DNA of 33,618 nt from an uncultured Candidatus Saccharibacteria bacterium (GCA_964534105.1 CAZHOF010000002.1:1-33618); one strand, 5' to 3'; positions 6,159 to 33,406 are shown, numbered from the stretch's first letter. Numbers and translations: made by a program. Notes: generated from the sequence alone by a model not told the origin.

Positions 6159-6186
6159 TTGACATTTACTGATAATATGATATAAT
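6159..6186 (+). promoter_or_regulatory. consensus sigma70 promoter TTGACA-N16-TATAAT
   Basis: TTGACA at 6159-6164 and TATAAT at 6181-6186. A perfect match to both hexamers is unlikely by chance in 33 kb. The track's ATG at 6185 sits inside the -10 box, so the real start is downstream. Confidence 0.75.
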
Positions 6187-6227
6187 GAGCAAGCACATTA
6201 AGAAACTGGGAAATAAGCGCAAGCGTC

Positions 6228-6243
6228 TTCCTGATATCAGGAA
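6228..6243 (+). promoter_or_regulatory. 16-nt perfect palindrome TTCCTGATATCAGGAA in the 5' UTR, overlapping the SD region
   Basis: Read directly. It lies between the predicted TSS (about 6193) and the AGGAAAGGAAGG SD. It could be an operator or an SD-sequestering hairpin. Confidence 0.4.
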
Positions 6244-6256
6244 AGGAAGGTACGAG

Positions 6257-6658
6257 ATGTTCAAGAAAGCATGGGCGTATCTGGTGCTGGTGAATCGTAA
6301 GTACAACAACTCGCTGTTCGCCGGGCTGGTCGTCGGGCTGCTCATCGGGCTGGGCGCCGGGCTGGCCATCGGGTTGACCTACGGGCTGGCCTACGGGCTT
6401 GTCAACGTGCTGATCCTCGGGCTGTGCACCGGGCTTGTCGCCATACTGGCCGTCGGGCTGGGTGCTGGGTTGAGCGTCGGGCTGGGCGCCGGGCTGGGCA
6501 TCTGGCTGGGCGCCGGGCTGGGCACAGTAACCTCAATAGGCGTCCTGTATCTCGCCCAGGTTATCGGCTGGATGCCAATCGTCGCAATCGTCCTTGTCTC
6601 CACTCTCACCGTGTGGTACCACCGCCGGAAGAAGAGTGTAGCGATGACGTCGGGCTGA
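6257..6658 (+). CDS. glycine-zipper repeat membrane protein (133 aa), unknown family
   Basis: Start is ATG at 6257, preceded by GGAAAGGAAGG-tacgag. The protein is MFKKAWAYLV.., then 17 consecutive G-L-x-x tetrads, then a hydrophobic segment, then HRRKKSVAMTSG. It has its own promoter and terminator. Confidence 0.7.
   Translation: MFKKAWAYLVLVNRKYNNSLFAGLVVGLLIGLGAGLAIGLTYGLAYGLVNVLILGLCTGLVAILAVGLGAGLSVGLGAGLGIWLGAGLGTVTSIGVLYLAQVIGWMPIVAIVLVSTLTVWYHRRKKSVAMTSG
6323..6523 (+). repeat. about 17 tandem 12-nt units (consensus nnnnnnGGGCTG) encoding (G-L-x-x)n
   Basis: GGGCTG/GGGCTT/GGGTTG recurs every 12 nt. Leu is invariant in all 17 units and Gly is present in 14 of 17. Confidence 0.85.
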
Positions 6659-6664
6659 CCATCA

Positions 6665-6700
6665 AGAGCCCTTAGCAATATCATGCTGAGGGCTTTTTCT
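6665..6700 (+). terminator. intrinsic terminator after the glycine-zipper gene
   Basis: AGAGCCCT..(AGCA-loop-TGCT)..AGGGCTTT followed by TTCTTTG. Confidence 0.6.
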
Positions 6701-6744
6701 TTGATCTCGCTTTAAGCATATATTACCAGTTACCATTCTCTACT

Positions 6745-6778
6745 TAAAAAAGAGGGGCAGTCATAACGACAGCCCCTC
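6745..6778 (-). terminator. intrinsic terminator for the 175-aa orphan gene
   Basis: The minus strand reads GAGGGGCTGTCGTTATGACTGCCCCTC followed by TTTTTT, 12 nt after the stop codon. Confidence 0.7.
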
Positions 6779-6789
6779 AAAGATGGAAA

Positions 6790-7317
6790 TTATGGGTGGA
6801 GAAGAAGACGCTCCGAGTACCGCTGGCGACGGCGCCTTTTCGCGCTGCCGTCTCCGTGCCGGCGCCTCTTGCGATCTTCCGAGCTCGGCGGTCCTCCACG
6901 AATCACCCAGACGGCGACAATCTGACAAGCGGCGCTCCGTATACCGGCACCGCTCAACGCGCTTGGAATACGCAACACAGGGGGGCTTTCCCGAACAGGT
7001 CTCATGGAAACACCCCGCGAGCCGTTCCGATGGGCAACATCTTCCAGAAAAATCCCTTCCCGGACCCCGATCTTGAGGACAAGAGGAATTTCTCGTCCCC
7101 CGTCCATGACCCAGCCCAAGCGATGCTCTACCCCGGGCGTATCCCGTTGCCACTCCGAGGCAAAAATCCTGGGGTGTCTCAGTACGCCCTCCTGACGCGC
7201 CCCCCCGCTGCTGTCACCACCGGAATTTATTTTCTCCCGTTCCGATGATGCAATCTCGCGGAGCACTGCTTCCGCCCTCCCTCCGGGCATAGCGGAAATG
7301 ACCCGTACCACATCCAT
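6790..7317 (-). CDS. hypothetical protein, 175 aa, GC-rich, Arg/Lys-rich C-terminal tail
   Basis: Start context is TTTCAAGGAGGGttgaagcATG, with a dedicated terminator downstream. The protein ends ..SSEDRKRRRHGDGSAKRRRRQRYSERLLLHP. Long ORFs on both strands make the frame choice less certain. No family recognised. Confidence 0.5.
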   Translation of the reverse strand: MDVVRVISAMPGGRAEAVLREIASSEREKINSGGDSSGGARQEGVLRHPRIFASEWQRDTPGVEHRLGWVMDGGREIPLVLKIGVREGIFLEDVAHRNGSRGVSMRPVRESPPVLRIPSALSGAGIRSAACQIVAVWVIRGGPPSSEDRKRRRHGDGSAKRRRRQRYSERLLLHP

Positions 7318-7484
7318 GCTTCAACCCTCCTTGAAACTTTTCGCGTTGATCCCGGCGACAAAAAGGAAACTCAGGTAAAATAACACCTCCTTTCCTGCGT
7401 ATGCATTTTATGTTAAAGAACTCTGACCGGATTTCCGGCCTGGAGATTATCAGCCGAAAGCGGACAATCTTCAACCCGGAAATG

Positions 7485-7512
7485 AAACCTCCCGTTTGAA
7501 ACGGGAGGTTTT
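7485..7512. terminator. 13-bp-arm hairpin AAACCTCCCGTTT-g-AAACGGGAGGTTT with flanking A/T tracts (bidirectional)
   Basis: Read directly. On the minus strand it follows the 28-aa ORF by about 25 nt and is followed by TTTCATTTCC. Confidence 0.65.
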
Positions 7513-7535
7513 GGTATTTCTTTCTCTTTTCTAAA

Positions 7536-7622
7536 CTAACACTTACCACAACCTCCCCCACTGTACGGAATAAGGACGACGGTAACGGAGAAAAGAACGT
7601 GGGAAAATAGTTTCATTTTCAT
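7536..7622 (-). CDS. 28-aa hydrophobic micro-protein MKMKLFSHVLFSVTVVLIPYSGGGCGKC (C-terminal CxxC)
   Basis: ATG at 7622 lies 4 nt downstream of a TATATT -10 box (leaderless geometry). The stop is TAG at 7536-7538, followed by a hairpin terminator. It is below the ORF-track cutoff. Confidence 0.5.
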   Translation of the reverse strand: MKMKLFSHVLFSVTVVLIPYSGGGCGKC

Positions 7623-7626
7623 TTCT

Positions 7627-7655
7627 AATATAGGAAGATTTCGGAAAAAGGTCAA
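7627..7655 (-). promoter_or_regulatory. near-consensus promoter TTGACC-N17-TATATT driving the 28-aa ORF / short RNA
   Basis: On the plus strand, ggtcaa is at 7650-7655 and aatata at 7627-7632, with a 17-nt spacer. Confidence 0.65.
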
Positions 7656-7687
7656 GGGCGTGTCTATGAAAAAGAGGTAGAACCTTG

Positions 7688-7713
7688 AAATGACTCAACC
7701 GGTTGAGTCATTT
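7688..7713 (-). terminator. 26-nt perfect palindrome AAATGACTCAACC/GGTTGAGTCATTT downstream of the DUF5671 gene
   Basis: Read directly. It begins about 20 nt after the stop at 7734. The A/T tracts are part of the arms. Confidence 0.5.
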
Positions 7714-7733
7714 CCAATATCCCTAAATAAGCT

Positions 7734-8693
7734 CTATCGTACCGCAGGCGACCCCTCAAGCGCCGGCTTCGGGAAAAAATCCTCGTCAATAGTGCGATCA
7801 AAGCAGGTCTCGCCCGCTTCATGTTCCCACGACATCACGCTGCCGTATTCGTACCGTGCGGGAGTTGTGTCCACCTTAAGTGAAGGCAACGAAAACGTCG
7901 TGCAGAGAGAAAATTCCTGATCTCCCGTCACCTCATAGCCGTATGCCTCCGAAGTTTTGGGATCAACGGGCACCGAAACACTGCGGAGCGGATCCTCCAG
8001 GTTGGAAAGATCTTGGGGTAATACCTCCTTCTGCTGCCAGTAATAAACTATCTGATTCTGAAGATACTGCAGATCACTCACGCGCCGCTCATCGGATTGC
8101 CGCAAACGTTCCTGTTGGGGCGAACCGGCAACGAAAAATCCGGCGATGACAGCAATAAGAACTCCGGCGATGACAGCAAAGAAAAAGGGACGCACCCAAG
8201 TGGCGTGATCATGGTACGATCTTCGTAAACTCCAGATGTAGTACGCGAAAACAGAACCAGCCACCACAAAGATGGAAAGTACCTTCAGAAGGAAACGGAC
8301 AGTCAGCTCACCGTTCAAAAACTTATAGATAAGCGTGATCAAATCACCCCCGATCAGAAGCGCAACGACAAGAAGTGTGAAATAGACCAGCCATTTTCGT
8401 ACCCGAAGCTCTCGTTTCTCCGGAGAAGAGGAATAAAGACGCTCCAAAAAACGGGTAATCCAGATATAGACCGGAAAAGCGACGATGAGAGAGGCGAGAG
8501 CGCCGCGGATCAAGCGTCGCGCCTCAAGTGTTGCATAGTACCCGCCTTCAAGAGGGTCCTGAAAACCGAGATTAATGTATTGGAATAAAAGGATGAGCAG
8601 TGCCGTTGCACTTGCGTACAAACCGACCATAGCAAGGATATGGAAGAAAACATCGCGGGCTCCGCTCTCACTGTGTGATAAAGATGACGGCAT
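7734..8693 (-). CDS. DUF5671-like multi-pass membrane protein with a pilin-like C-terminal globular domain
   Basis: N-terminus ..ARDVFFHILAMVGLYASATALLILLFQYINLGFQDPL matches my memory of DUF5671. The C-terminus RRVSDLQYLQNQIVYYWQQKEVLPQDL..PVDPKT..YGYEV..FSLC follows the pseudopilin/pilin head pattern. ATG at 8693 avoids overlap with hpf; ATG 8753 and TTG 8768 are alternatives. Confidence 0.7.
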   Translation of the reverse strand: MPSSLSHSESGARDVFFHILAMVGLYASATALLILLFQYINLGFQDPLEGGYYATLEARRLIRGALASLIVAFPVYIWITRFLERLYSSSPEKRELRVRKWLVYFTLLVVALLIGGDLITLIYKFLNGELTVRFLLKVLSIFVVAGSVFAYYIWSLRRSYHDHATWVRPFFFAVIAGVLIAVIAGFFVAGSPQQERLRQSDERRVSDLQYLQNQIVYYWQQKEVLPQDLSNLEDPLRSVSVPVDPKTSEAYGYEVTGDQEFSLCTTFSLPSLKVDTTPARYEYGSVMSWEHEAGETCFDRTIDEDFFPKPALEGSPAVR

Positions 8694-8709
8694 AAAAAGG
8701 TTTTTTAAT

Positions 8710-9054
8710 TTATTTGTTACGGGTTCGACGTTGGGTTCGATTAGTTGCCTCATTTTTGTACGAGGCAATATTGTTTTTTAAAATGTCACGGATTCGGTCA
8801 ATAGCGGATCGGATATCCTCGTCTTTGTGTTCCGCGCGCAGAATGGTACCCGGCAGCTCAAGCGTTGCCTCGGCGTAAAAAACATCGCCCGATTTATGAT
8901 GCCTGGTTGAGCGGGCAAGTTCGACAAACACCGTCCGCTCTCCCTCTTTTTCAAAACGCCTCAAAAATCGCTCCAAGGTACCGATCTTTTCCTCTGCGTA
9001 TTGCCGAACAGAAGGCGTAAGATCCAATCGTGTTCCCTGGATATCAATCTTCAT
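8710..9054 (-). CDS. hpf: ribosome hibernation promoting factor / RaiA family (short form)
   Basis: 114 aa, MKIDIQGTRLDLTPSVRQYAEEKIGTLERF.., typical of the S30AE/sigma-54 modulation protein family. It has no long C-terminal dimerisation domain. Confidence 0.85.
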   Translation of the reverse strand: MKIDIQGTRLDLTPSVRQYAEEKIGTLERFLRRFEKEGERTVFVELARSTRHHKSGDVFYAEATLELPGTILRAEHKDEDIRSAIDRIRDILKNNIASYKNEATNRTQRRTRNK

Positions 9055-9069
9055 ACGTACCCGTTTATA

Positions 9070-9480
9070 TTATAACCAAAGAAAAGCAATGATAAAAATA
9101 GCAATCGAAATAAGAGCGGAGCCGAAACACCAGGTACACCTGCTGTGCAACACGAAAAATTGGATTCCGGAAAGAATACACGCGGCAACTGCCGAGGCAA
9201 GCGATGCAAAAAAGAACACGAGCCCGAGCGGAGAAAAGAAAGTATCGGGAAAGAGAAGAAAAGCAGCGGAAACCAAAACCACAAAGAGGTAGTACGACAT
9301 TCCGTATATCTCAAGAGGAATTCCCAGAAAACGAGAGTAGCGGCTCCGCATCACCTCATCGCAGTTTCCATCCAAGGGGCAGACAAGCGAAACGTCATCG
9401 TGCTTACTCCACCAAATGGAAAGCGCTAGCGCGAGCCCTAAGACCCCGAGGGCTATTTCAAATACGAGCGCTATGGTCAT
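9070..9480 (-). CDS. vitamin K epoxide reductase (VKOR) family protein
   Basis: Four predicted TM segments, a loop Cys pair (CPLDGNC) and an active-site CxxC (CTWC). Confidence 0.8.
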   Translation of the reverse strand: MTIALVFEIALGVLGLALALSIWWSKHDDVSLVCPLDGNCDEVMRSRYSRFLGIPLEIYGMSYYLFVVLVSAAFLLFPDTFFSPLGLVFFFASLASAVAACILSGIQFFVLHSRCTWCFGSALISIAIFIIAFLWL

Positions 9481-9483
9481 CGT

Positions 9484-9702
9484 CTATTCGGGACGCGGCG
9501 ATTTTTTCTTCCGTTCACTCCAAATGAAAATATAAAGAATTTCAAGAACCGCCGCGGTGTTGACAACAAGAAGGGCAAGAAACCACCAACGGTCACGCAG
9601 GCGCGCGGCTTTCCATAACGCATACCCCTTCCATGGCAACGTCCACAATAAAAGCACGAACAACGTCCACGTCCACTGTTCCTGCGTTAAAAACTGCTCC
9701 AT
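9484..9702 (-). CDS. DUF5652-like small membrane protein
   Basis: ..LLLWTLPWKGYALWKAARLRDRWWFLALLVVNTAAVLEILYIF matches the family as I remember it. ATG at 9702 is 6 nt downstream of TGTTATACT (-10 at 9709-9714), suggesting a leaderless start. The track start at 9720 is TTG. Confidence 0.7.
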   Translation of the reverse strand: MEQFLTQEQWTWTLFVLLLWTLPWKGYALWKAARLRDRWWFLALLVVNTAAVLEILYIFIWSERKKKSPRPE

Positions 9703-9850
9703 AGACATAGTATAACACAAAAATGGGAGAACCTATCCCGAGACAACAGAAACATTCTCGATTATTTCCAATTTCTATCTTCCACTGATTAACATCTTAC
9801 TGTCCTAGCCAGGATTCCAAATCCTTCACGCTTTTCACCTCAACGGAAAA

Positions 9851-10753
9851 TCATGAAGCAAGAAAGTCCTCGAAAAGGGGTTGTGCTTCGCCTCCGCGGC
9901 TCACCTCCAAAATGAGCTGGAAAAAAGGGGGCGTCTTTACTTCCTCCTGCTGGAACAGCTTCTCAAACGCCGCAAGCGAATGAGATCCTTCACTTGTAAA
10001 TGAGAGCGTCCCCGTTGCTCCAATACTCTCTCCCGCCATTCTGTTGCGAGAGTGGGGGCTAAAACAGGTTGCGATGAAATCACCGGCACCGGCAACACCG
10101 AGCGCAGTAGAGCGTTTTCCCCCGAGTTTCGAGACAAGCGCCGCCATTTCTCCTAAAGCACAAGACACGAGAACACCTTTGGCATTATTCCCTAATCGAA
10201 TCCCGTCGGCTATCCCGATACCGAAAGAATAAACGTTCTTCAAAACCCCGGAGAGCGCAACACCGTGCGCATCAGCTGAATACGAAAGCGAAAGCGGAGT
10301 GCCGCGAAAAACTTTACGAAGTATGCGCAGAGCCTCTCTGCTCCGGGAAGCCACAACTCCGCCTCCCGGGAGCCCCTCGGAGAGCTCCCGCGCAAGCATC
10401 GGGCCGCTCAAGAGCGCCCACAGTACCCGCGGTGGCAACGTCTCATCACAAACAATGTCCATGGTTTTCGAAGAGTTCTCTTCCAGTCCCTTTGAAAGCA
10501 CGACGGCAAGTGTCCCGTCGGCAAAAAACTCACCGGCTTCCTGAAGCGCCTTCCGCACTGCCCAAGAAGGAACGCAGAAAAAGACAACCGGAGCCCCGGC
10601 AACGGTCTCGTGAAGGGATCCCTGATCGGGAACTTTGGTCGCGTCTTTATCGTAAAGTGAGCACCGAACCGATTTTTTTTCGCGAAGCACGTGAGCAACA
10701 GCCTGCCCCAAGGCACCTGCACCAACAATTGCAATATGCGTCGAGCGACTCAT
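9851..10753 (-). CDS. gpsA: NAD(P)H-dependent glycerol-3-phosphate dehydrogenase
   Basis: N-terminal Rossmann motif IAIVGAGALGQA, and length and layout typical of GpsA. Confidence 0.8.
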   Translation of the reverse strand: MSRSTHIAIVGAGALGQAVAHVLREKKSVRCSLYDKDATKVPDQGSLHETVAGAPVVFFCVPSWAVRKALQEAGEFFADGTLAVVLSKGLEENSSKTMDIVCDETLPPRVLWALLSGPMLARELSEGLPGGGVVASRSREALRILRKVFRGTPLSLSYSADAHGVALSGVLKNVYSFGIGIADGIRLGNNAKGVLVSCALGEMAALVSKLGGKRSTALGVAGAGDFIATCFSPHSRNRMAGESIGATGTLSFTSEGSHSLAAFEKLFQQEEVKTPPFFQLILEVSRGGEAQPLFEDFLAS

Positions 10754-10758
10754 GTAGT

Positions 10759-11964
10759 TTATTCGTAAAGCCGGATAAGTTCGTTGAACTTGCTCATTCG
10801 TTCGCGTACGGGTGCGCCGATCTTCACGCCGAAAACATTCCCGGCTTTTGCAAGATGAATGATAAAAGGATCATCCGTTTCGCCGGATCGGTGCGAAACA
10901 ATCGCGCGCAGACCCGAGGAGTGGGCCGCAAGAATGGATGCACACGCCTCGCTCACCGTACCAACCTGGTTTGGCTTGATAATAACTCCCGAGATCGCGT
11001 TCTGTTTCGCAACCTCACGAATAGTATCGCAGTGCGTCGTGGTAAGATCATCGCCTATAATAAGTTTCTCGGGGAATGTGTTTTGAAGGGTACGGAAATG
11101 CTCCGCGTCGTCTTCATGGAAGGGATCCTCTATGGAGAAAAGTAATTTCGATTTCCCGAAGGCATTTGCATACCAATCAGCAAGCCATTGGGCATTCCTC
11201 TTCTTTCCTTCCCATGCGTATGTTTTATGGTCCGAGTCCCAGAAAGCGGAAGCAGCGACATCCAAACCGATAAGAAGTTCGTCCTCGAGACCAAGAGCGT
11301 TGATGGCAAATTCAAGATGAGTAACCGGATCAAAGTTATGTCTGAAATCAAGCGCGTAACCGCCCTCATCACCGATAGGAAGGATGCTTTTTTTTGTCTT
11401 TTTAAAAAGCGCCGCACCCAAATCGCGATACAACGCGAGCAGTGTTTTTATTTCCTTCGCAACCGCTCTACCGCCCGTTATAACAAGATACTCCTGGATA
11501 TTAAGATTCGTCCTGGCGTGCTTCCCTCCGTTAATCAGGTTTGAAAAAATGCGCGGCGGGGACGTTTCCTCCTTCTTCATCTCCGAAAAAAACTCCTCCC
11601 GAAGCAGCTCCCAAACCGCGACGCCGCGTTCTGCGGAAAGCGCACGGGTAAACGCAACGGAAAGTCCGAGCGCTACGTTGCCCCCGATGCGCTCCTTGCG
11701 CGACGTATCGTCGTGCGCAAAAAGCTCGTGATCAAAAGCGGAAACGGAGGAGAACTCTTTCTTGCAGATATCAGAACGTAACGAATCAAGTGCCGTTTTT
11801 GCTTCCCCGAAAAGGAAGCTTGTTGCTTCGCGGGATCCCCTACTCGCTCCCGCGGGGAGTGAAGCGCGATACTCTTTCTCTCTCACATCAAAAAGAGAAA
11901 CCTCAATCGTTGGATTGCCGCGCGAGTCGAAGATTTCCCGAAGCGCAACATCTCGGATACGCAT
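10759..11964 (-). CDS. eno: enolase (compact, 401 aa)
   Basis: DSRGNPTIEV, GDEGGYA, LDVAASAF, SIEDPF, IGDDL, IIKPNQVGT and SHRSGETDD. The catalytic and metal-binding positions are conserved. Confidence 0.9.
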   Translation of the reverse strand: MRIRDVALREIFDSRGNPTIEVSLFDVREKEYRASLPAGASRGSREATSFLFGEAKTALDSLRSDICKKEFSSVSAFDHELFAHDDTSRKERIGGNVALGLSVAFTRALSAERGVAVWELLREEFFSEMKKEETSPPRIFSNLINGGKHARTNLNIQEYLVITGGRAVAKEIKTLLALYRDLGAALFKKTKKSILPIGDEGGYALDFRHNFDPVTHLEFAINALGLEDELLIGLDVAASAFWDSDHKTYAWEGKKRNAQWLADWYANAFGKSKLLFSIEDPFHEDDAEHFRTLQNTFPEKLIIGDDLTTTHCDTIREVAKQNAISGVIIKPNQVGTVSEACASILAAHSSGLRAIVSHRSGETDDPFIIHLAKAGNVFGVKIGAPVRERMSKFNELIRLYE

Positions 11965-11968
11965 ACGT

Positions 11969-17646: not shown

Positions 17647-17661
17647 AATATCGTTTCAAGT

Positions 17662-23873: not shown

Positions 23874-23931
23874 AAACCGCCTTCATCTTCATTTTACCAC
23901 GGCAAGGAATATTATCAGTAACACAATCACC

Positions 23932-23971
23932 GTCCTCAAAAATCTTCCCGATCGGGAAGATTTTTGAGGAC
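23932..23971. terminator. 40-nt perfect palindrome GTCCTCAAAAATCTTCCCGA/TCGGGAAGATTTTTGAGGAC (bidirectional terminator geometry)
   Basis: The inner GC stem CTTCCCGATCGGGAAG is flanked by AAAAAT/ATTTTT. It lies between the queA stop and the DUF167 start. Confidence 0.6.
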
Positions 23972-24012
23972 ACGTCTCGAACTAAATGGAGACAGGTAAA
24001 GTAATGGGGAGA

Positions 24013-25044: not shown

Positions 25045-25047
25045 ATA

Positions 25048-26403: not shown

Positions 26404-26408
26404 AGTAG

Positions 26409-26981: not shown

Positions 26982-26982
26982 A

Positions 26983-27012
26983 AAAAGAGAAGGCCTCTGT
27001 CAGCCTTCTCTT
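26983..27012 (-). terminator. hairpin + T5 ending directly at the sigma start codon
   Basis: The minus strand reads AAGAGAAGGC-tgacagag-GCCTTCTCTT, then TTT, then ATG(26981). Confidence 0.55.
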
Positions 27013-27042
27013 ATCATACCGGGCGAAAAAAACGGGAGCAAG

Positions 27043-27261
27043 CTACCATTGTGATGCAACGGTTCGGCCAACCTGGTTCTCCTGAACAATGATATTCTGC
27101 TCCTCCTGGAATTGATCAGCACGATACGACTCCACGGATTGTTGAACCACAAAGACACCGCCTACGACAAGGAGTGCGAAGAGCGCGGAAAGAATGCCGA
27201 GCGCCGTACCGATGCGTCGCTCCTCTTTCCCAAGCATGTAATATTCGAAATATCGCTGCAT
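27043..27261 (-). CDS. hypothetical 72-aa single-TM protein
   Basis: ATG-initiated ORF with one TM segment (GTALGILSALFALLVVGGVFVV), divergent from tig. Confidence 0.5.
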   Translation of the reverse strand: MQRYFEYYMLGKEERRIGTALGILSALFALLVVGGVFVVQQSVESYRADQFQEEQNIIVQENQVGRTVASQW

Positions 27262-27326
27262 AATCTGGGTGCTTCATAAGATATAACGAAGAAAGACGGG
27301 AAAAGTAACACATCGGAGGAATCGGG

Positions 27327-27355
27327 TTGCGTTCACGTGAAACCTGTTCTATGGT
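27327..27355 (+). promoter_or_regulatory. candidate tig promoter TTGCGT-N17-TATGGT
   Basis: The -10 box ends 12 nt before the ATG at 27368, with no SD. Confidence 0.4.
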
Positions 27356-27367
27356 GAAACGGTTCAT

Positions 27368-28420
27368 ATGGAAAACGCAAAAACATACCGCATCGTCGCA
27401 AAAAATCGGAAGAAAGACGGTACGGCGGAAATTCAGGCGGAGATCAACCCGGAAGAGCTGGACCGTCACCGCGCAGCGGCGATCTGCGAACTCTCCAGCG
27501 ATCTCAAACTTCCCGGATTCCGCAAAGGACATATTCCGGAATCAGTAGCCCTCCAACACCTTCCTTCGGAAGAAGTTCTTGAACGGACTGCGCGTAAAAC
27601 GCTCGCCGCCGCTTATTCGCACGTCATCCGGGAACTTGAGTGGAAACCCCTCTCGTCTCCGCGCATCACCATCACGAAACTCGCATTTGGAAACCCGCTT
27701 GCCTTCACTATAAATATTGCCGTCGCACCCGACGTCAAACTTCCGAATTACAAAGTGATTGCAAAAAAAATAATGAGCGGGCAGGAAAATGAGGAAGTGA
27801 GCGAAAAAGAGGTTGACGATGTCATCAATGAATTCCTGAAAATCATGCAGAAGAGAAAAGTTGAGGAGAGTAAAGAAAAAAGCAAGGAAACAGAAATGCC
27901 GCAATTGACGGACGAACTGGCAAAAGAACTCGGTCCCTTTAAGACGGCTGACGAGGTAAGAACGCGGATCCGTGAGGATTTGAAACGGCAAAAAGAAACT
28001 GCGATGAAAAAGCAGAAGCGCGAAGAGCTCGCGAAGGCGCTCGCGGAAACCACGCACATGGATGTTCCGGACCTGGCAATCGAGGAAGAAATGGATCGCG
28101 CCCGGAATGCGCTACAGGAACACCTTGAAAAACAAAACCTCCCTAGAGAAGAGTTTATGAAGAAAACGGGAAAAACCGAGGAAGAGCTCTGGGGAGAAGA
28201 GCGGCAATCAATTGAGCGACAACTGAAGACCAGATTGATTCTTGAAGGAATCGCCGAAGCCGAACACATCGCCGCGACTCCGGAAGAAATCGAACAGGAA
28301 CTGCAGGTATTCAAGAAGCAGAATCCCGAGGCAAACGAAGAAGAAACACGGGCATATCTCTCGCTCATCATACGGAACGAAAAAACAATCAGGTTTCTGG
28401 AAGAAAAAGGCAAAAAGTAA
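27368..28420 (+). CDS. tig: trigger factor lacking the FKBP/PPIase domain (350 aa)
   Basis: Ribosome-binding signature LKLPGFRKGHIPESV and a C-terminal arm domain (PQLTDELAKELG.., ..LILEGIAEAE..). No PPIase segment lies between them. Confidence 0.85.
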   Translation: MENAKTYRIVAKNRKKDGTAEIQAEINPEELDRHRAAAICELSSDLKLPGFRKGHIPESVALQHLPSEEVLERTARKTLAAAYSHVIRELEWKPLSSPRITITKLAFGNPLAFTINIAVAPDVKLPNYKVIAKKIMSGQENEEVSEKEVDDVINEFLKIMQKRKVEESKEKSKETEMPQLTDELAKELGPFKTADEVRTRIREDLKRQKETAMKKQKREELAKALAETTHMDVPDLAIEEEMDRARNALQEHLEKQNLPREEFMKKTGKTEEELWGEERQSIERQLKTRLILEGIAEAEHIAATPEEIEQELQVFKKQNPEANEEETRAYLSLIIRNEKTIRFLEEKGKK

Positions 28421-28449
28421 ACCTCAAGGCGCATCCCTTCTTGCCCACA

Positions 28450-28487
28450 CGCCTCACTTTACTCGCATATGCGAGTAAAGTGAGGCG
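28450..28487 (+). repeat. 38-nt perfect palindrome CGCCTCACTTTACTCGCAT/ATGCGAGTAAAGTGAGGCG after tig
   Basis: Read directly, 30 nt after the tig stop. No T-tract follows, so a terminator role is uncertain. Confidence 0.8.
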
Positions 28488-28653
28488 CTGGTACGCTGCA
28501 GAACACAACGACAAAATCACTCTTGAGCGTAAACAAAGCAAGAAACGTTATCCACAAAATCACTTGCCCGCAAAAACATGTATGTTAACCTAAAAGTGGC
28601 ACCACGCGTCATCAGTTTTTCACACCTCACACGGTAACAGAGGGAGGCTCATC

Positions 28654-28764
28654 ATGATCGCGGAACGCGCACCGACCACCGGCCACACGGAGAACGCGCA
28701 CCACCGTCGTGGCGAAGCGAACGTTCCCGGCGCAATCGAGAAGGTCGTGGAGAACACCTCGTAA
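28654..28764 (+). CDS. 36-aa micro-protein MIAERAPTTGHTENAHHRRGEANVPGAIEKVVENTS
   Basis: Start context is AGAGGGAGGctcatcATG. About 30 of 36 codons end in G/C. A strong terminator lies 28 nt downstream. It is below the ORF-track cutoff. Confidence 0.55.
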   Translation: MIAERAPTTGHTENAHHRRGEANVPGAIEKVVENTS

Positions 28765-28791
28765 CCGATCCGGTCACGAGGACCATCCGAA

Positions 28792-28826
28792 AAGGGGGTA
28801 ACAATCGTTACCCCCTTTGTTTTTTT
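28792..28826. terminator. bidirectional intrinsic terminator AAGGGGGTAAC-aatc-GTTACCCCCTT + TGTTTTTTT
   Basis: 11-bp GC-rich stem. The T7 tract is on the plus strand and the A-tract gives U's on the minus strand. It is shared by the convergent micro-ORF and DUF192. Confidence 0.85.
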
Positions 28827-29160
28827 ACGGAGAAACGACCTCCAACTGATCCCCAACCTCTGTCCCGCTCTTCTCAAGCACTCCCGCAGGCAATTCAAAA
28901 ACCCGTAAGTATTTCGGATTCCAGAAGAAGAAAGAGAAACGCCCCATATTGCGGCGAACCGCCTTCACGCGCAACACATCGTCGCAGACAAGAACATCAA
29001 TGGGAAATTGCATCCCAAATGTATGAATCCCCCATCGTGTCTGAAGCGCAAGCGCACGAGGATGGGAATTACCAATAAGCCCTCTTGCCTTCTCTTTTAA
29101 TGTCTTCGTAAAAAAAAGTTCGCGCGCCAAAATAGTGTCTCTTGTTGTATTCCTTAGCAT
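28825..29160 (-). CDS. DUF192 protein
   Basis: ..WGIHTFGMQFPIDVLVCDD.. is the core motif of DUF192 (COG1430). Confidence 0.8.
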   Translation of the reverse strand: MLRNTTRDTILARELFFTKTLKEKARGLIGNSHPRALALQTRWGIHTFGMQFPIDVLVCDDVLRVKAVRRNMGRFSFFFWNPKYLRVFELPAGVLEKSGTEVGDQLEVVSP

Positions 29161-29171
29161 CTTGCCTCCAA

Positions 29172-29222
29172 ATTATAGCGCACTGCACATTCATTGACAA
29201 AAATACAGAAAAGTGATAGGTT
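29172..29222. promoter_or_regulatory. back-to-back divergent promoters sharing the -35 region
   Basis: Plus strand: TTGACA(29194-29199)-N17-TGaTAGGTT. Minus strand: TTGTCA(29200-29195)-N17-TATAAT(29177-29172). Confidence 0.5.
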
Positions 29223-29271
29223 CGAACCAGTCCATTTTTTTCTCTTTCATCTTCCTAAAAGGAGGTGGGTC

Positions 29272-29754
29272 ATGGAATTTCCATGGATCAACGAAGCAAT
29301 CGCCGCGGTTCCCGGGGGCTATGCGCCGGAGTTGCCGCCCGTGGGCGAAGACGAGGTCGTGGGCACGGTACCGGAACACCTTCGGCCGCTCTTCCTCGCT
29401 TTCGTTCACATCGGCGACACGGTGCGTGAGAAACACGATGCGCATTGCGCCGAGAAGGGAGAGCACAACGAGGAGAAGCGTGCATCGCACGGCCGCGAGA
29501 TGCTCGATCTCATCCTGCAACGCGACGTTCTGAAGAGCCTCTTCTTCAGAACGCTCGAGACCGAGCTCGATCTCGACCCGGAGGCAAACCACGGTGTCTG
29601 CGAGAACTGGCAGGTCGTCTCCATCAAGAAGGTGGAGAAACCGGTGAGCGGGCCGGACATCATCATCATCGGAGCGTTCGGCGGTCCCAACTCCGGGAGC
29701 GACGGCGAACCCGGAACTCTCGCCGAACACCTCGACAGGGTATTCGGCGGCTAA
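29272..29754 (+). CDS. hypothetical protein, 160 aa, very GC3-rich orphan
   Basis: Start context is AAAAGGAGGtgggtcATG. The great majority of codons end in G/C in this frame. A strong terminator follows. The 196-aa antisense ORF is a shadow. No family recognised. Confidence 0.7.
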   Translation: MEFPWINEAIAAVPGGYAPELPPVGEDEVVGTVPEHLRPLFLAFVHIGDTVREKHDAHCAEKGEHNEEKRASHGREMLDLILQRDVLKSLFFRTLETELDLDPEANHGVCENWQVVSIKKVEKPVSGPDIIIIGAFGGPNSGSDGEPGTLAEHLDRVFGG

Positions 29755-29762
29755 CCCGCCAA

Positions 29763-29797
29763 AGCCAGGAATGTACATCATTCCTGGCTCTTTTTTT
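29763..29797 (+). terminator. intrinsic terminator AGCCAGGAATG-tacat-CATTCCTGGCT + CTTTTTTT
   Basis: 11-bp stem, 5-nt loop and a T7 tract, 9 nt after the stop. Confidence 0.85.
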
Positions 29798-29815
29798 CAT
29801 TCCAATTAGGAAGGG

Positions 29816-30265
29816 TTACTGTATAGAAAAACTCTTGCTAATACCGTTCACGTCAACCGAATAAGCACCCGGTGCAAGCGCTGTGGCGTTTTCAAGAGGA
29901 ACGACTTCTTCAAAAGGAACGATCATCTGAGAGCAAATCGCGCCCTCGGGTCGGGCGGAGAGAATCGTAATGTAAAACTGCTTCCCGTCGCGATCCTGCA
30001 TAATGTCGTTTACCTTCGTGCAGGCATCGGAAAGAATACCGTGCGCAACCACAGCCACGCCCCCATTTGAAACACCCACATTGACCTCGTGCACATAAGC
30101 ATCGCGGTACACTAGAACCTGCGCCCTAGCCTCGTTTGATGTAACTTCCGGGTCATCACCGCCACACCTCCAAAGCACTAATACGCCTACTACAACGACA
30201 ACACAGGCTGTAAAGATACAGACCAATTTTGTTGCACCTCTTTCACCGCACATACTATCTTTCAT
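29816..30265 (-). CDS. hypothetical membrane-anchored / secreted protein, 149 aa
   Basis: N-terminal hydrophobic segment (LVCIFTACVVVVVGVLVLW) followed by a soluble domain. It starts 6 nt after the transporter stop. Confidence 0.55.
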   Translation of the reverse strand: MKDSMCGERGATKLVCIFTACVVVVVGVLVLWRCGGDDPEVTSNEARAQVLVYRDAYVHEVNVGVSNGGVAVVAHGILSDACTKVNDIMQDRDGKQFYITILSARPEGAICSQMIVPFEEVVPLENATALAPGAYSVDVNGISKSFSIQ

Positions 30266-30271
30266 TATACA

Positions 30272-31675
30272 CTATTGGAAAAAGTGGAAATCGATAATTT
30301 TGACGGCAAAAAAGAGGAAAAAGAGCGAGATAATACCGAGAATAATTGAAGTGGCAATGCTCGGCCGAAGTTCTCGAGGCAACCTCGTATTATTGAGATA
30401 GATGAGGAAAGGAGTGTAAATCGCCATGGAAAGCCCGCCAAGCACTGCCGAAATCGTGAGAAGCGTGAGCGGCTGTTTAAAAGGAATAAGGAACGCCCCG
30501 ATAAGCACAACGAGCACGATCGTGATGTAATACAGGTGACTTACGGAAACTGATCGTAAGGGACGCAGGAAACGTGAAAAGGGACCTACGCGGGAATTCA
30601 CGTAGAGAATATCGCTCGTAATCCGCGTAAGCGCGTCAAGCACTGTCCACATTACCGAGAAAAGCATGAGAAACGCCATCACGAGAAAAAGTTTGAAACC
30701 GAATAATCCCCACTGTTCGCCAAAAATATGGGCCTGCACAACGGCAACCTGGAGCCCTTCCGGAACAAGACCGCGAGGAGTGAGTACCACGTATGCATTC
30801 ACGCTTAACAAGAACAGGGTAATGAAACCAAGAAGAAGGAAGATGACTCCCTGATCAATGCGCACAAAGCGCATCCATCCCTTCCACCGCTTCATGTTCT
30901 CCGGAGTCGGTTCAAAAACATAACCGGTCGTAGCAACCGCCTCGGGCTTTCCGGTAATCGGGTTGGTAATCCTACCACTCCACGCCCCCATCCCCGCCTG
31001 TTTATCGCGATACCAGAGCGAAACACAAAGATTCAACATGCCGCCTGCGCCCGCAAACACGATTGCACCCAAGAGCACGTTAATATCGATCCCCGCGGGG
31101 ATGCCGCCGAAGTTCAAAAGTCCCGCGAAGGCCTCACGAAGATTTTCCGCGCTCAAATTAAAAAAACTGATCGCAAGCAGCATCAGGAAAAAAACGGGAA
31201 CGATAATTTTAAGCGTTCGCTCAAGAACAACGTACGCAACCCGGCCGCTGAAAGTAAAAAGCAAAACCAATCCGAGTGTTGCAAACGACCAGGCATAATG
31301 ACCGCCAAAACCGAAAAGTTCTTTGAGTGTTGTGCCAATCGCACTTGCCCACCCCGGCCAAATATAAAGAAGAATGGCGCCGAAAAACCAAAATGGCGCG
31401 AACCAGGAAAAAACCCGGGCGGAGCTTGTAAAAAACCCTTCGCCCGTAGCAAGTGCGTGGCGCGCAACTTCCTGATTGATAAAATATTGGAAAAGAATAC
31501 CGAGAAGCGCGAGCCACAACAAGCCCAAACCGAACTTGGTAATGAGATGCGGCCAAAGAATCAGCTCGCCAGTGCCGATGGCAAGTCCCATCACCACGAC
31601 ACCGACACCCAGTGCTTTCCGCCATGAAGGAGGTTGGGGTAAATCCCGCCGTTCTAAGGGAGGGTAGGAGGACAT
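30272..31675 (-). CDS. Nramp-related (LeuT-fold) membrane transporter with non-canonical TM1/TM6 motifs
   Basis: The TM1-TM2 region GLAIGTGELILWPHLITKFGLGLLWLALLGILFQYFINQEVARHALATGEGF aligns by eye to MntH ..GYIDPGNFAT..FGYQLLW..Q..A.LG..TG... ATG at 31675 is 1 nt after the DUF456 stop. Confidence 0.65.
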   Translation of the reverse strand: MSSYPPLERRDLPQPPSWRKALGVGVVVMGLAIGTGELILWPHLITKFGLGLLWLALLGILFQYFINQEVARHALATGEGFFTSSARVFSWFAPFWFFGAILLYIWPGWASAIGTTLKELFGFGGHYAWSFATLGLVLLFTFSGRVAYVVLERTLKIIVPVFFLMLLAISFFNLSAENLREAFAGLLNFGGIPAGIDINVLLGAIVFAGAGGMLNLCVSLWYRDKQAGMGAWSGRITNPITGKPEAVATTGYVFEPTPENMKRWKGWMRFVRIDQGVIFLLLGFITLFLLSVNAYVVLTPRGLVPEGLQVAVVQAHIFGEQWGLFGFKLFLVMAFLMLFSVMWTVLDALTRITSDILYVNSRVGPFSRFLRPLRSVSVSHLYYITIVLVVLIGAFLIPFKQPLTLLTISAVLGGLSMAIYTPFLIYLNNTRLPRELRPSIATSIILGIISLFFLFFAVKIIDFHFFQ

Positions 31676-31676
31676 G

Positions 31677-32165
31677 CTATATCCAAAGCGCAAGAAGGAA
31701 AACAATAAGCATTGCTAAAAGCACAAGAAACTTGACGATAGAACTGGCAAGAATGCCCAATGCGGCCCCTATCGAAGTCCGCAAGGCGTCCCGGGACTCT
31801 CGCCCCGCAAAGAGTTCGCCGAGAAAAGCCCCGAGAAGCGGGCCGATAAGAAATCCGACCGGGCCAAGCACGACAACGCCACATACAATTCCCAGAACCA
31901 CTCCAAGAACTCCATATCGCGTCGCCTTTCGCCGTCTTGCTCCGAGAAGCGGGCCGAAAACGTCCAAAACAAGCGTAAGCGCAGTAAGCCCGAGAAAAAT
32001 AAGAACTGTAGAGAGAGAAACGGTAAGAAAATCGGTGAAATAGGCGTAGAGAAAAAGACCAAACCATGCAAGAGGAACTCCGGGCAAGAAAGGTAAAATA
32101 ATCCCGAGGAAACTAATAAGAAAAATAACGATTCCTAAGAAAACAAGAAAAAATTCCAAGCCCAT
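31677..32165 (-). CDS. DUF456 membrane protein
   Basis: FLISFLGIILPFLPGVPLAWFGLFLYAYF.. and a Gly-rich C-terminal half are typical of DUF456. TGTTACAAT lies 9 nt upstream of the ATG. Confidence 0.75.
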   Translation of the reverse strand: MGLEFFLVFLGIVIFLISFLGIILPFLPGVPLAWFGLFLYAYFTDFLTVSLSTVLIFLGLTALTLVLDVFGPLLGARRRKATRYGVLGVVLGIVCGVVVLGPVGFLIGPLLGAFLGELFAGRESRDALRTSIGAALGILASSIVKFLVLLAMLIVFLLALWI

Positions 32166-32207
32166 AGTACGCTTATTGTAACATTACAAACGTAAAACCT
32201 CCACGAT

Positions 32208-32247
32208 ACAAAAGAGAATATCCCTGCAGTCCTTGAACTGCAGGGAT
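32208..32247 (-). terminator. intrinsic terminator after the 56-aa ORF
   Basis: The minus strand reads ATCCCTGCAG-ttcaagga-CTGCAGGGAT followed by ATTCTCTTTTG. Confidence 0.65.
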
Positions 32248-32277
32248 AGATGAGAAATCAACCGGGCGGCGGAAAAA

Positions 32278-32448
32278 TCACCGGTGACGCTTCTTCCTCT
32301 TCTTCGGCTCCGGTTCGCTGATACCGACCGGCATTGATCCTTGGGGTCTCTGCGCGTTGGCGCGGGCGGCCTGAACGGCAAGCTGGTCGGAAGGACACAG
32401 TCCTGGCACACGATTGTGTCCCTTGTTGTTTCCCCTCTGACGATTCAT
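32278..32448 (-). CDS. 56-aa basic micro-protein MNRQRGNNKGHNRVPGLCPSDQLAVQAARANAQRPQGSMPVGISEPEPKKRKKRHR
   Basis: Start context is CTAAGGAGGAGGGAGttATG at 32448. The stop is TGA at 32278-32280. It has its own promoter and terminator and is below the ORF-track cutoff; the listed 75-aa ORF is in another frame. Confidence 0.55.
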   Translation of the reverse strand: MNRQRGNNKGHNRVPGLCPSDQLAVQAARANAQRPQGSMPVGISEPEPKKRKKRHR

Positions 32449-32495
32449 AACTCCCTCCTCCTTAGAAAAAGATGGGGAAATAGAGAACTAAAAGC

Positions 32496-32524
32496 ACTAT
32501 AAAAAATACTTGCGCGAAATGCAA
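32496..32524 (-). promoter_or_regulatory. promoter TTGCAT-N17-TATAGT for the 56-aa ORF
   Basis: On the plus strand, atgcaa is at 32519-32524 and actata at 32496-32501. Confidence 0.5.
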
Positions 32525-32654
32525 ACCAGGCAGTAGAAATGCGATTTAGTGTCACGGAGCACAAACATCTCGATTATTTATTAACAACTTGTCGAATCTG
32601 GTTCTTACTCGACGGTCCCTTTCTCCGAAGGTGAAAGATCACATTTTCACTGCC

Positions 32655-32693
32655 TGGCAAACAAAAGCCGCTACAAATAATTGCAGCGGCTTT
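32655..32693 (-). terminator. intrinsic terminator after the 205-aa secreted protein gene
   Basis: The minus strand reads AAAGCCGCT-gcaattatttgt-AGCGGCTTT followed by TGTTTGCC. Confidence 0.6.
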
Positions 32694-32702
32694 GATGTCG
32701 TG

Positions 32703-33320
32703 TCAGAAGCTGAGACACCATTCGTCGGGAAGAAAACCGATACCGACGAAAAACTTCTTGTCCCACGAATTCTTCGGGTCAACCGTCCCCCACGCCTTCA
32801 CGTAGAAATAGGACGCGGGGAGAATCTTCACCACGGGACCAACGTCCACCAGGAGCGGTATACCGGACTCCTTATACACCTGCCCGTCGATGCCGAGCGC
32901 GAGACGCGGGTTGGGATGCCAAAGCGCATCCACCCAATGGTAGATGAAATCGGCATGACCTTCTCCGATCCCGCGGCTGTACTGGTTCATCACGAACACG
33001 GTGTAGACATCGAACCCCGCGAACGCGTTGATCTGGGTGGAGATGCCGTCGTAGTCACCGACCAGAGCGCCGGCGTACGGCATGACCGAAACGCCGCGGA
33101 CTTCGAAAGCCCGGCCGACGAAAGCACCTGCCGTCTTCTGCTGATCGAAATTGTACCGCGCATCGACGAGCAAGGACGAGCCGTTGTACACGTACCACGG
33201 AATCACAGTTACGTCGCTCTGGTCCACCTTCGACCACACAGCGAAATCGTGCTGGGCGAACACGGAAGCGGGAACCACCAGCACCAACGCTACCAGAATG
33301 ACACGAATTGCGCGTTTCAT
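32703..33320 (-). CDS. secreted beta-rich protein, 205 aa, outer-membrane beta-barrel-like C-terminus
   Basis: Start context is CACAGGAGGagagaacgATG at 33320. Signal peptide MKRAIRVILVALVLVVPASVFA-QHD. Alternating hydrophobic pattern, ending ..FFVGIGFLPDEWCLSF (terminal Phe). GC about 60%. Confidence 0.7.
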   Translation of the reverse strand: MKRAIRVILVALVLVVPASVFAQHDFAVWSKVDQSDVTVIPWYVYNGSSLLVDARYNFDQQKTAGAFVGRAFEVRGVSVMPYAGALVGDYDGISTQINAFAGFDVYTVFVMNQYSRGIGEGHADFIYHWVDALWHPNPRLALGIDGQVYKESGIPLLVDVGPVVKILPASYFYVKAWGTVDPKNSWDKKFFVGIGFLPDEWCLSF

Positions 33321-33377
33321 CGTTCTCTCCTCCTGTGAGTGAAACAAACCACGCACGCTTTCAAATATCTATCTTTA

Positions 33378-33406
33378 ATTATATCACAATAAATAAAGAA
33401 TGTCAA
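33378..33406 (-). promoter_or_regulatory. consensus sigma70 promoter TTGACA-N17-TATAAT
   Basis: On the plus strand, tgtcaa is at 33401-33406 and attata at 33378-33383. Both hexamers are perfect. Confidence 0.75.

Follow-up and report, generated by a model that had tools for sequence, protein, structure and literature searches.

The 33,618-nucleotide stretch CAZHOF010000002.1:1-33618 (GCA_964534105.1), referred to here as the window, raises the question of why seven dispersed, GC-rich open reading frames (ORFs), each led by a Shine-Dalgarno (SD) motif, lie among housekeeping genes that are poor in such motifs. An earlier note on this DNA singled out these ORFs, which are designated cassettes c1-c7 at the same coordinates, and likened them to phage morons, to a recent transfer from a high-GC donor or to a dedicated, highly translated accessory gene class. 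With a probability of roughly 0.6, the cassettes represent accessory genes of an old class confined to this lineage, each of them autonomous, provided with a leader and dependent on its SD, beside housekeeping genes of a leaderless type, a reading that draws on one 33.6-kb window of this genome. The seven units are as follows (SD duplex energies, dG, in kcal/mol; CDS, coding sequence; aa, amino acids; GC3, GC content at third codon positions).

c1, 6159..6697, plus strand: perfect promoter TTGACA-16-TGnTATAAT at 6159-6186; leader of ~65 nt; weak SD AGGAAAGGAAGG at 6239-6250 (dG -9.1); CDS 6257-6658, 133 aa, GC3 0.83; terminator 6664-6697
c2, 6752..7474, minus strand: weak promoter-like site 7474-7446; hairpin 7440-7425; SD AAGGAGGG at 7332-7325 (dG -11.9); ORF 7317-6790, 175 codons, GC 0.61; terminator 6778-6752 (-19 kcal/mol)
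c3, 20938..21418, minus strand: promoter-like TTGACT 21418-21413 and TAATAC 21395-21390; SD AAGGAGG at 21365-21359 (dG -12.7); CDS 21352-20972, 126 aa, GC 0.575, GC3 0.60, coding score ~0; terminator 20967-20938 (-23.3 kcal/mol)
c4, 28564..28818, plus strand: extended -10-like TGTTAACCT at 28583-28591; SD GGGAGG at 28642-28647 (dG -11.4); CDS 28654-28764, a His/Arg-rich peptide of 36 aa, GC3 0.78; terminator 28791-28818
c5, 29194..29789, plus strand: -35 TTGACA at 29194-29199; extended -10 TGATAGGTT at 29214-29222; T-rich leader of ~45 nt; SD AAGGAGG at 29259-29265 (dG -12.9); CDS 29272-29754, 160 aa, acidic, GC3 0.78; terminator 29763-29789
c6, 32219..32524, minus strand: TTGCAT 32524-32519, 17-nt spacer, TATAGT 32501-32496; SD AAGGAGGAGGGAG at 32463-32451 (dG -12.6); CDS 32448-32278, 56 aa, very basic (Lys/Arg-rich); terminator 32248-32219
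c7, 32664..33406, minus strand: perfect promoter 33406-33378; leader of ~50 nt; SD AGGAGGAG at 33334-33327 (dG -10.3); CDS 33320-32703, 205 aa, GC3 0.75, signal peptide and predicted 12-stranded beta-barrel; terminator 32693-32664

A comparison of the cassettes (n=7) with a contrast class of 29 host genes (143..32165) reveals a complete separation (Mann-Whitney U=203/203, p=1.2e-7): GC content is 0.575-0.640 in the cassettes versus 0.437-0.549 in the host genes, and GC3 is 0.598-0.828 versus 0.448-0.584, which bears out both the division into two gene populations and the higher GC that the earlier note had sampled. In an unbiased 151-bp sliding scan of the window, c1, c2, c5 and c7 are the four longest stretches above 0.58 GC. 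The 100 nt 5' of each cassette have a GC content of 0.31-0.46, and host intergenic DNA has 0.43; the GC excess is restricted to the cassette ORFs and ends at their boundaries. The codon shift lies chiefly in third positions and is chiefly from T to C, as seen in the cassette and host fractions of TTC (0.78 and 0.43), TAC (0.73 and 0.38), AAC (0.73 and 0.39), GAC (0.60 and 0.36) and CTG (0.36 and 0.09). GC3 periodicity is strong in c1, c4, c5 and c7, and a leave-one-out cassette codon model scores the annotated frame positively for c5 and c7 and near zero for c3. The bias is slight in c2 and c3, and strand skew accounts for part of the excess of C-ending codons (NNC) in c1, c4 and c5; C/(C+T) in tig, the only host gene on the plus strand, is 0.63.

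The same two groups are separated by their start signals, which were scored as duplex energies with the canonical 16S tail ACCUCCUUA. SD/anti-SD energies range from -9.1 (c1) to -12.9 kcal/mol at the cassette starts, whereas ~+1 to -6 kcal/mol is obtained at those of uvrA/B/C, hpf, VKOR, gpsA, eno, PPDK, glycerate kinase, malic enzyme, queA, sigma, tig, DUF378, DUF456 and Nramp. The statement that conserved genes lack an SD thus holds for the host starts that the earlier note had listed, but DUF192 carries GGAGG (-9.3 kcal/mol) and DUF167 is intermediate (-7.9 kcal/mol). Start regions are more stably folded in the cassettes than in the host genes (-12.8 vs -8.3 kcal/mol, p=0.004), which fits a need for the SD and suggests SD-dependent translation.

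The cassettes also carry their own transcription signals, as had been proposed. The window contains only two 12/12 matches to TTGACA-N16/17-TGnTATAAT, at 6159-6186 (5' of c1) and 33406-33378 (5' of c7), for a chance expectation that we estimate at ~0.01, and a hairpin of -19 to -25 kcal/mol (z -3.3 to -6.5) with a U-tract follows all seven cassettes. In the host genes hpf, glyK, malic enzyme, AstE, DUF192, ORF11_beta, DUF456 and tig, by comparison, a -10 box ends 8-14 nt 5' of the ATG, and because this distance is so short the operon-first host genes look leaderless. On this leaderless reading, the GGAGG of DUF192 would not be an SD because it lies between the gene's own -10 box and the transcription start. 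Internal host genes lack an SD and are tightly packed, with stop/start overlaps or gaps of a few nucleotides inside operons.

These features suggest two modes of expression. In the host mode, a -10 box ~8-14 nt ahead of the first ATG would direct transcription of the housekeeping operons and yield leaderless or near-leaderless mRNA, and the tightly packed downstream genes, which lack an SD, would probably be translated by coupling. In the cassette mode, monocistronic autonomous units occupy slots between the housekeeping operons. Each has a sigma-70 promoter, a T-rich leader of ~45-125 nt and a GGAGG SD 5-9 nt before the ATG of an ORF rich in GC3, which a strong intrinsic terminator follows, and translation would rely on SD/anti-SD pairing. 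The products are lineage-restricted orphan proteins, namely the putative c7 barrel, a glycine-zipper protein (c1), an acidic helical protein (c5) and small basic or His-rich proteins (c4 and c6). We infer that the cassettes form a separately controlled accessory class and that a force which acts on the coding sequence itself maintains their codon usage, rather than this usage being a fading donor signature; their functions plausibly lie in the envelope or in host interaction. A bolder version, which is unlikely, posits a two-tier translation system in Parcubacteria of this lineage, in which a leaderless or coupled bulk is complemented by a small, conserved SD-dependent set with its own codon dialect for envelope and host-interaction proteins, the porin-like barrel among them; anti-SD availability or the state of the ribosome could turn the whole set on or off together. 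In its extreme form, the consensus signals and foreign-looking codons would be there because the products, or even the genes, act in or on a diderm host cell.

Whether the cassettes are real is answered by independent assemblies. Exact-protein look-ups recover the arrangement of the window in at least 20 contigs, which differ in sample and assembler (ENA ERZ272489xx, Logan SRR8437xxx, JGI 3300028193, 3300005645 and 3300028161) at 98.8-100% identity, and because the identical arrangement recurs in so many independent contigs, chimeric assembly, which the earlier note had wanted checked, is excluded. The companion idea that the ORFs are spurious readings of GC-rich non-coding DNA draws on c2, which lacks periodicity, has multiple open frames and scores negatively, and on the near-zero score of c3. 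It conflicts with the strong periodicity of c1, c4, c5 and c7 and with the conserved homologues of c4-c7, whose invariant residues are scattered along the proteins. For c4-c7, the homologues and independent contigs refute an artefact, and for the set as a whole it is very improbable. The earlier note's group of seven ORFs has to be amended for c2, which shows neither codon periodicity nor a coding score in any frame.

The homologues also date the cassettes. Among 5.8e9 proteins, only two clusters are homologous to c7 (57% and 40% identity) and only two to c5 (68% and 57%), all of them from syntenic or related contigs of the candidate phyla radiation (CPR) type. Syntenic loci are found in three related lineages, L108/L109, L111/L112 and L011 (L-numbers denote fetched loci or contigs), each of which keeps the gene order and orientation of the window over the segment covered, aside from extra genes. 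Gene orders, identities to the window proteins and the GC3 of c5 against that of neighbouring host genes are as follows.

Window: c5 GC3 0.78 against ~0.52
L108/L109: c4 homologue (51%), DUF192, c5 homologue (68%), extra MscS gene, ORF11_beta; c5 GC3 in L108, 0.71 against 0.36-0.46
L111/L112: tig, extra carbamoyltransferase, c4 homologue (64%), DUF192, c5 homologue (57%), ORF11_beta; c5 GC3 in L111, 0.74 against 0.49-0.61
L011: c7 homologue (57%), two c6-like SD-led units (c6, 42%, E 4e-9), DUF456 (64%), Nramp (79%), ORF11_beta (65%), c5 homologue on the opposite strand (42%); c5 GC3 0.865 against 0.53-0.71

The signature persists in these relatives. The cassette homologues have SD energies of -10.6 to -12.9 kcal/mol beside neighbours without an SD, and the c4 homologues retain both SD and terminator. 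The c7 homologue of L011 has a GC3 of 0.76 and an SD of -11.6 kcal/mol, and that of L012 has a GC3 of 0.85 beside a tyrS of 0.565. In the alignment of c5 from four lineages, no substitution occurs in the -35 TTGACA, the extended -10 or GGAGGT, whereas compensatory changes preserve the terminator stem, so that the stems covary; promoter, SD and terminator are under purifying selection. At 29172-29222, the promoters of DUF192 (TTGTCA-17-TATAAT, minus strand) and c5 (TTGACA-17-TAGGTT, plus strand) are divergent with overlapping -35 hexamers, and the TTGACAA core of this shared region is invariant in the four lineages. Cassettes c4-c7 have occupied the same loci since before the three related lineages diverged. 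According to the earlier note, the presence of the same cassettes with native composition at the same loci throughout the lineage would speak against two gene populations; half of this is observed, since c4-c7 lie at the same loci but with non-native composition and SDs, and the dichotomy in SD and composition is therefore real and old.

The inter-operon slots also hold other genes in the relatives. In L111 (2262-3290), an aspartate/ornithine carbamoyltransferase-like gene with an SD (-11.6 kcal/mol) and a GC3 of 0.67 lies between tig and c4, where the slot of the window is unoccupied, and in L108 (1275-2138) an AT-rich MscS channel gene without an SD lies between c5 and ORF11_beta. The slots are sites of gene turnover. 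In L011 (6199-6950), two tandem c6-like cassettes are present, each with a TTGACC-N17/18-TATAGT promoter and an AAGGAG(G) SD ahead of a small basic ORF, which a terminator follows; whole cassette units can therefore duplicate. The public record annotates neither ORF as a gene. In a search with Nramp, three well-conserved homologues on long contigs show no synteny with the window.

Evolutionary rates, obtained as Nei-Gojobori estimates of synonymous divergence (dS) and of the ratio of nonsynonymous to synonymous divergence (dN/dS), bear on how the composition has been kept. Host genes of the window compared with L111 or L011 have a dS of 1.4-2.0 and a dN/dS of 0.07-0.18 (0.07-0.20 for the host class overall). 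The corresponding values are 0.47-0.95 and 0.36-0.73 for c5 over all pairs, 0.75 and 0.38 for c7 against L011, and 0.31 (neighbours 1.4-1.9) and 0.66 for c4 against L111. The cassettes therefore combine fast protein evolution with slow synonymous evolution, and the sites remain C- or G-ending. Since flanking synonymous sites are saturated, any leftover donor composition should have decayed, and the GC3 excess must therefore be maintained or else resupplied.

This result bears on the proposal that the cassettes arrived recently, by horizontal transfer or as moron-like insertions, from a GC-rich donor that uses SDs, be it a bacterium, plasmid or phage, and that they still carry the donor's promoter, SD, codon usage and terminator. 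The atypical composition of expression-autonomous units suits such a transfer, as do the varying slot contents (the L111 carbamoyltransferase and the L108 MscS gene), the obvious GC-rich SD-led genes of other Parcubacteria, such as an AIR-synthase-like gene, and a 13-nt direct repeat around c7. Additionally, no relatives of c1-c3 are found, so a recent origin is possible for these three. However, c4-c7 occupy the same slots in three lineages where the flanking dS has reached 1.4-2.0, and a GC3 excess of 0.15-0.3 is still present. A GC excess that stops at ORF ends and a conserved c5 promoter that overlaps that of the host gene DUF192 are also difficult to reconcile with recent arrival, and no donor is visible, as the two homologue clusters each of c5 and c7 belong to the same narrow lineage. 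PHROG, PADLOC, viral-contig, integrase and tRNA signals are likewise absent. Recent transfer is thus improbable overall and not supported for c4-c7, whereas an import origin of the class followed by long retention is plausible.

The ORF-bounded shift, the preference for NNC and the lowered dS all fit selection that acts on the coding sequence, one form of which holds that the cassettes are the most highly expressed genes of the genome, with signals and codons shaped by translational selection. The perfect promoters, the strong SDs, the preference for NNC over NNT (TTC, TAC, AAC), the confinement of the shift to ORFs and a dS lowered as codon-choice selection predicts all agree with this form. 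It is nevertheless unlikely, because eno, tig and hpf in the window and EF-Tu, GroEL and DnaK in other Parcubacteria lack both bias and SD, strand skew explains some of the NNC excess of c1, c4 and c5, and c2 and c3 show little bias. Of the dedicated, highly translated accessory class put forward in the earlier note, the accessory class fits best, but the part on high translation is not supported, as eno, tig and hpf carry neither the SD nor the composition.

A further alternative arises from strain L004, in which a 177-bp tract of c5 (29395-29571 of the window) differs by 34 substitutions, or ~20%, spread evenly over codon positions, while the rest of the contig is identical. The tract encodes a protein equal to the L108/L109 allele, and L109 comes from the same sample series. 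Because of this equality, the tract is an import between lineages by recombination rather than local hypermutation, and allele exchange between lineages does occur. A diversity-generating retroelement was also considered for this tract and rejected, as the substitutions are not adenine-specific and the tract is the allele of a co-occurring relative. If cassette alleles move among co-occurring lineages by homologous recombination through conserved flanks, gene flow that keeps bringing in alleles of GC-richer relatives, perhaps with GC-biased conversion, could set their composition; such exchange would account for a cassette dS below that of the neighbours and is in line with cassettes that are nearer to host composition in the GC-richer L011. 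As the cause of the composition, however, it seems a poor candidate: cassette proteins are more rather than less diverged than their neighbours, the GC excess ends at ORF boundaries that conversion tracts should ignore, and the SD dichotomy persists in L011.

Several observations weigh against an old, SD-dependent accessory class. The lower cassette dS could reflect allele exchange between lineages, which explains neither the higher protein divergence nor a GC shift that stops at ORF ends. The L111 carbamoyltransferase, with its SD and raised GC3, indicates that genes which are gained or lost can bear the signature too, and the turnover of known-family genes that bear it fits an import origin for the class. 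No relatives of c1-c3 are present in 2.2 Mb of related loci, in which those slots are covered by no relative. For c2, codon periodicity is absent, several long frames are open and the codon model scores negatively in 6/6 frames. The 16S 3' end was not found in any fetched locus, and the anti-SD, leaderless transcription and SD-dependent translation are all deduced from sequence. Finally, the second of two surveys of other loci (38 loci obtained via PPDK) gives an SD on 5/27 high-GC3 outlier ORFs and 60/528 others, which is in the same direction as the first but not significant (odds ratio (OR) 1.8, p=0.23).

The first survey covers 67 other Parcubacteria loci (~1.1 Mb) with a simple ORF heuristic, an outlier being defined as an ORF at least 3 robust standard deviations above the locus median GC3. 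Nearly all loci are SD-poor, with an SD of -9 kcal/mol or stronger on 0-18% of large ORFs. An SD precedes 20/84 outliers and 46/1048 other ORFs (OR 6.8, p=7.5e-9), whereas control pentamers of like composition show no enrichment in this survey (OR 1.3-1.75, not significant). Seven of ten SD-led outliers that were checked lack a Pfam family. Among the obvious GC-rich SD-led genes of other Parcubacteria is the AIR-synthase-like one, with a GC content of 0.55 in a locus of 0.34. In other Parcubacteria loci, EF-Tu, GroEL and DnaK have GC3 z values of 0-1 and no SD. An association between SD and GC3 across Parcubacteria is thus suggestive, and it is also compatible with ordinary recent transfer.

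The individual cassettes differ in how much can be said of them. Cassette c1 encodes a membrane protein of ~20 tandem G-L-x-x units, which correspond to ~20 tandem copies of the 12-nt unit GGGCTGnnCnnC at 6290-6545, and its GC richness derives largely from this GGGCTGnnCnnC repeat. In the strain contig L099, c1 is shorter by an in-frame 36 bp, equal to three units, and the product is thus a length-variable glycine-zipper repeat membrane protein. Cassette c2 is a real unit bounded by promoter, SD and terminator, but its protein-coding status is doubtful and it may be non-coding. RNA genes were considered for the GC-rich islands and dropped: Rfam and ARAGORN give no credible match, the region 6000-7800 has no Rfam match even at E<=5 beyond sub-threshold terminator look-alikes, and the fold of c2 is only marginally more stable than shuffles (z -1.54). 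Between DUF5671 and c2, ~415 nt (7318-7733) carry no called gene; a hairpin with a 14-bp stem (7483-7513), then the promoter-like site (7474-7446) and then the second hairpin (7440-7425) all lie 5' of the c2 SD, and this stretch may be a long structured leader or attenuator. The 90% clusters of c2, c3 and c6 contain this strain alone, and a metagenome scan with PPDK yields only relatives of 57-69% identity without c1-c3 homologues.

In agreement with the statement that the cassette proteins belong to no recognized family, none of them matches Pfam, NCBIfam, PHROGs or PADLOC, and searches with c1, c2, c3, c5 and c7 reveal no viral-contig relatives. The predicted fold of c5 consists of a long helical hairpin and a small sheet, and the model has no structural match in the PDB. 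For c7, a model built on a three-sequence alignment (predicted local distance difference test score 72, predicted template modeling (TM) score 0.68) has as its best Foldseek matches the porins KdgM and NanC (4pr7, 4fqe and 2wjq; E 7e-5 to 3e-4, TM 0.60-0.72, with TM 0.62/0.72 at E 7e-5). The product is predicted to be a porin-like 12-stranded beta-barrel with a signal peptide. Like KdgM and NanC, it has a predicted signal peptide, 12 antiparallel strands, ~180 residues and a C-terminal Phe, but no sequence match to the family is obtained with Pfam or NCBIfam. Patescibacteria are generally described as lacking an outer membrane, which makes a barrel unexpected here and is a further difference from these porins.

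An exact 13-nt direct repeat, AAACAAAAGCCGC, at 32659-32671 and 33412-33424 brackets the promoter-ORF-terminator unit of c7. Each copy forms the 3' half of an intrinsic terminator, and the repeat could be a chance similarity of terminators or the scar of an insertion or duplication. The report of no integrase, transposase or flanking repeats is thus confirmed for the enzymes by Pfam, with no tRNA found either, but has to be amended for this repeat, the only flanking one found.

A comparison with known systems reveals partial likenesses. Highly expressed genes, for example in E. coli, carry translationally selected codons as measured by Sharp-type NNC/NNT indices. The cassettes resemble such genes in preferring NNC over NNT for Phe, Tyr, Asn, Ile, Asp and His, in their reduced dS and in their strong signals; they differ in that eno, tig and hpf are unbiased and the biased genes are fast-evolving orphans. 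Like phage morons, they are single ORFs between unrelated transcription units, deviate in GC content and are equipped with a promoter and a terminator of their own. In contrast to morons, their flanks are chromosomal housekeeping genes of the uvrABC, eno and tig type, no PHROG or viral-contig match exists and their positions are conserved between relatives, which leaves little room for the moron comparison of the earlier note. Integron gene cassettes differ as well, since the present units are dispersed, have their own promoters and are accompanied by no integrase by Pfam, and the 3' hairpins, with 11-14-bp stems and U-tracts, have the form of intrinsic terminators rather than attC sites. As in genomic islets, GC content and codon usage are atypical; c4-c7, however, are present at the relatives' loci, mobility hallmarks are absent, and c5 and c7 have no donor-clade homologues.

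The closest precedent is 'group C' of GeneMarkS-2 (PMC6028130), which comprises bacteria with frequent leaderless transcription, e.g., Actinobacteria and Deinococcus-Thermus; the same work defines 'atypical genes', and Parcubacteria are absent from the paper's text. As in group C (PMC6028130), a Pribnow box lies ~10 nt from first-in-operon starts, leaderless and SD-led starts occur in one genome, and a minority of genes deviates in composition. A putative -10 box within the group's range of ~6-14 nt is found at eight first-in-operon host genes. In group C, an SD is expected on both internal and leadered genes; in this 33.6-kb window the leadered cassettes carry one and the internal host genes do not. 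Furthermore, the SD coincides almost one-to-one with atypical monocistronic orphan genes, and the composition, unlike that of group C atypical genes, persists over saturated synonymous divergence and so is no mark of recent transfer. What is new here is the combination in one set of genes of SD dependence, autonomous transcription, orphan status and atypical codons, which would persist together at fixed loci over a long CPR divergence.

The window as a whole has a GC content of 0.507, and almost all of its genes are on the minus strand. The host genes, assigned by Pfam unless stated, are as follows.

within 143-32165, minus strand: uvrC, uvrA and uvrB
within 143-32165, minus strand: DUF5671-hpf-VKOR-DUF5652 group
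within 143-32165, minus strand: gpsA-eno-2-hydroxyacid dehydrogenase (2HADH)-PPDK-glycerate kinase (glyK) group
within 143-32165, minus strand: DUF378-malic enzyme group; YdjM-like protein
within 143-32165, minus strand: AstE/AspA-like-DUF763-DUF167 group
within 143-32165, minus strand: queA-...-ECF sigma factor group; DUF192
within 143-32165, minus strand: ORF11_beta-Nramp-DUF456 group (Nramp by homology)
27368-28420, plus strand: tig (trigger factor without PPIase domain)

No CcdA domain is found in what the earlier note had called the CcdA neighbourhood, where VKOR, DUF5652 and DUF5671 lie instead. No tRNA or tmRNA is detected in the window by ARAGORN, and no credible Rfam family is found across it at the gathering threshold. 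The 467-aa protein encoded between ORF11_beta and DUF456 is an Nramp transporter, with ~70% identity to proteins named for Patescibacteria, Harrisonbacteria, Colwellbacteria and Jorgensenbacteria. For the trigger factor, the closest genomes in an alignment-based scan are metagenome-assembled genomes of Parcubacteria/Paceibacteria at no more than 38% identity, and as a single-protein query against GTDB genomes it has no match. By these matches, the host, a small, groundwater-type organism, is a CPR/Patescibacteria bacterium of the Parcubacteria type without a close representative among GTDB species genomes.

Several host proteins are reduced, namely UvrC (143-1369, ~406 aa, with no match past the RNase H-like domain), UvrA (1366-3879, 837 aa) and the trigger factor (27368-28420, 350 aa). 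The plus strand has A>T and C>G across the whole window, with a cumulative GC skew of -5.4, and third-position usage in tig mirrors this strand skew. Strains also vary outside the cassettes. The DUF5671 gene (7734-8768) is called at 237, 259, 306 or 339 aa across strain contigs (L094, L098 and L100 were compared), and strain differences cluster at ~8500-8590 and 9300-9480 (VKOR), which suggests further strain-variable tracts. L006 differs from the window at 26931-27338 by ~40 substitutions in 400 bp, the remainder of the contig being nearly identical; this tract takes in a 72-aa ORF (27043-27261) as well as the ECF sigma gene's upstream region and the part that encodes its N-terminus.

Patescibacteria account for much of bacterial diversity, and their control of gene expression is almost unstudied. 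The combination of an SD with a GC3 excess would offer a simple rule for picking candidate symbiosis or envelope genes among CPR 'hypotheticals', and the predicted porin-like barrel of c7 in a presumed monoderm is a concrete experimental target. The cassettes also call for caution in annotation, as atypical composition is routinely taken to indicate recent transfer and here persists through saturated synonymous divergence. They may also allow selection on synonymous sites, or some other gene-specific force there, to be tested in an organism with a tiny genome, in which codon selection is expected to be weak.

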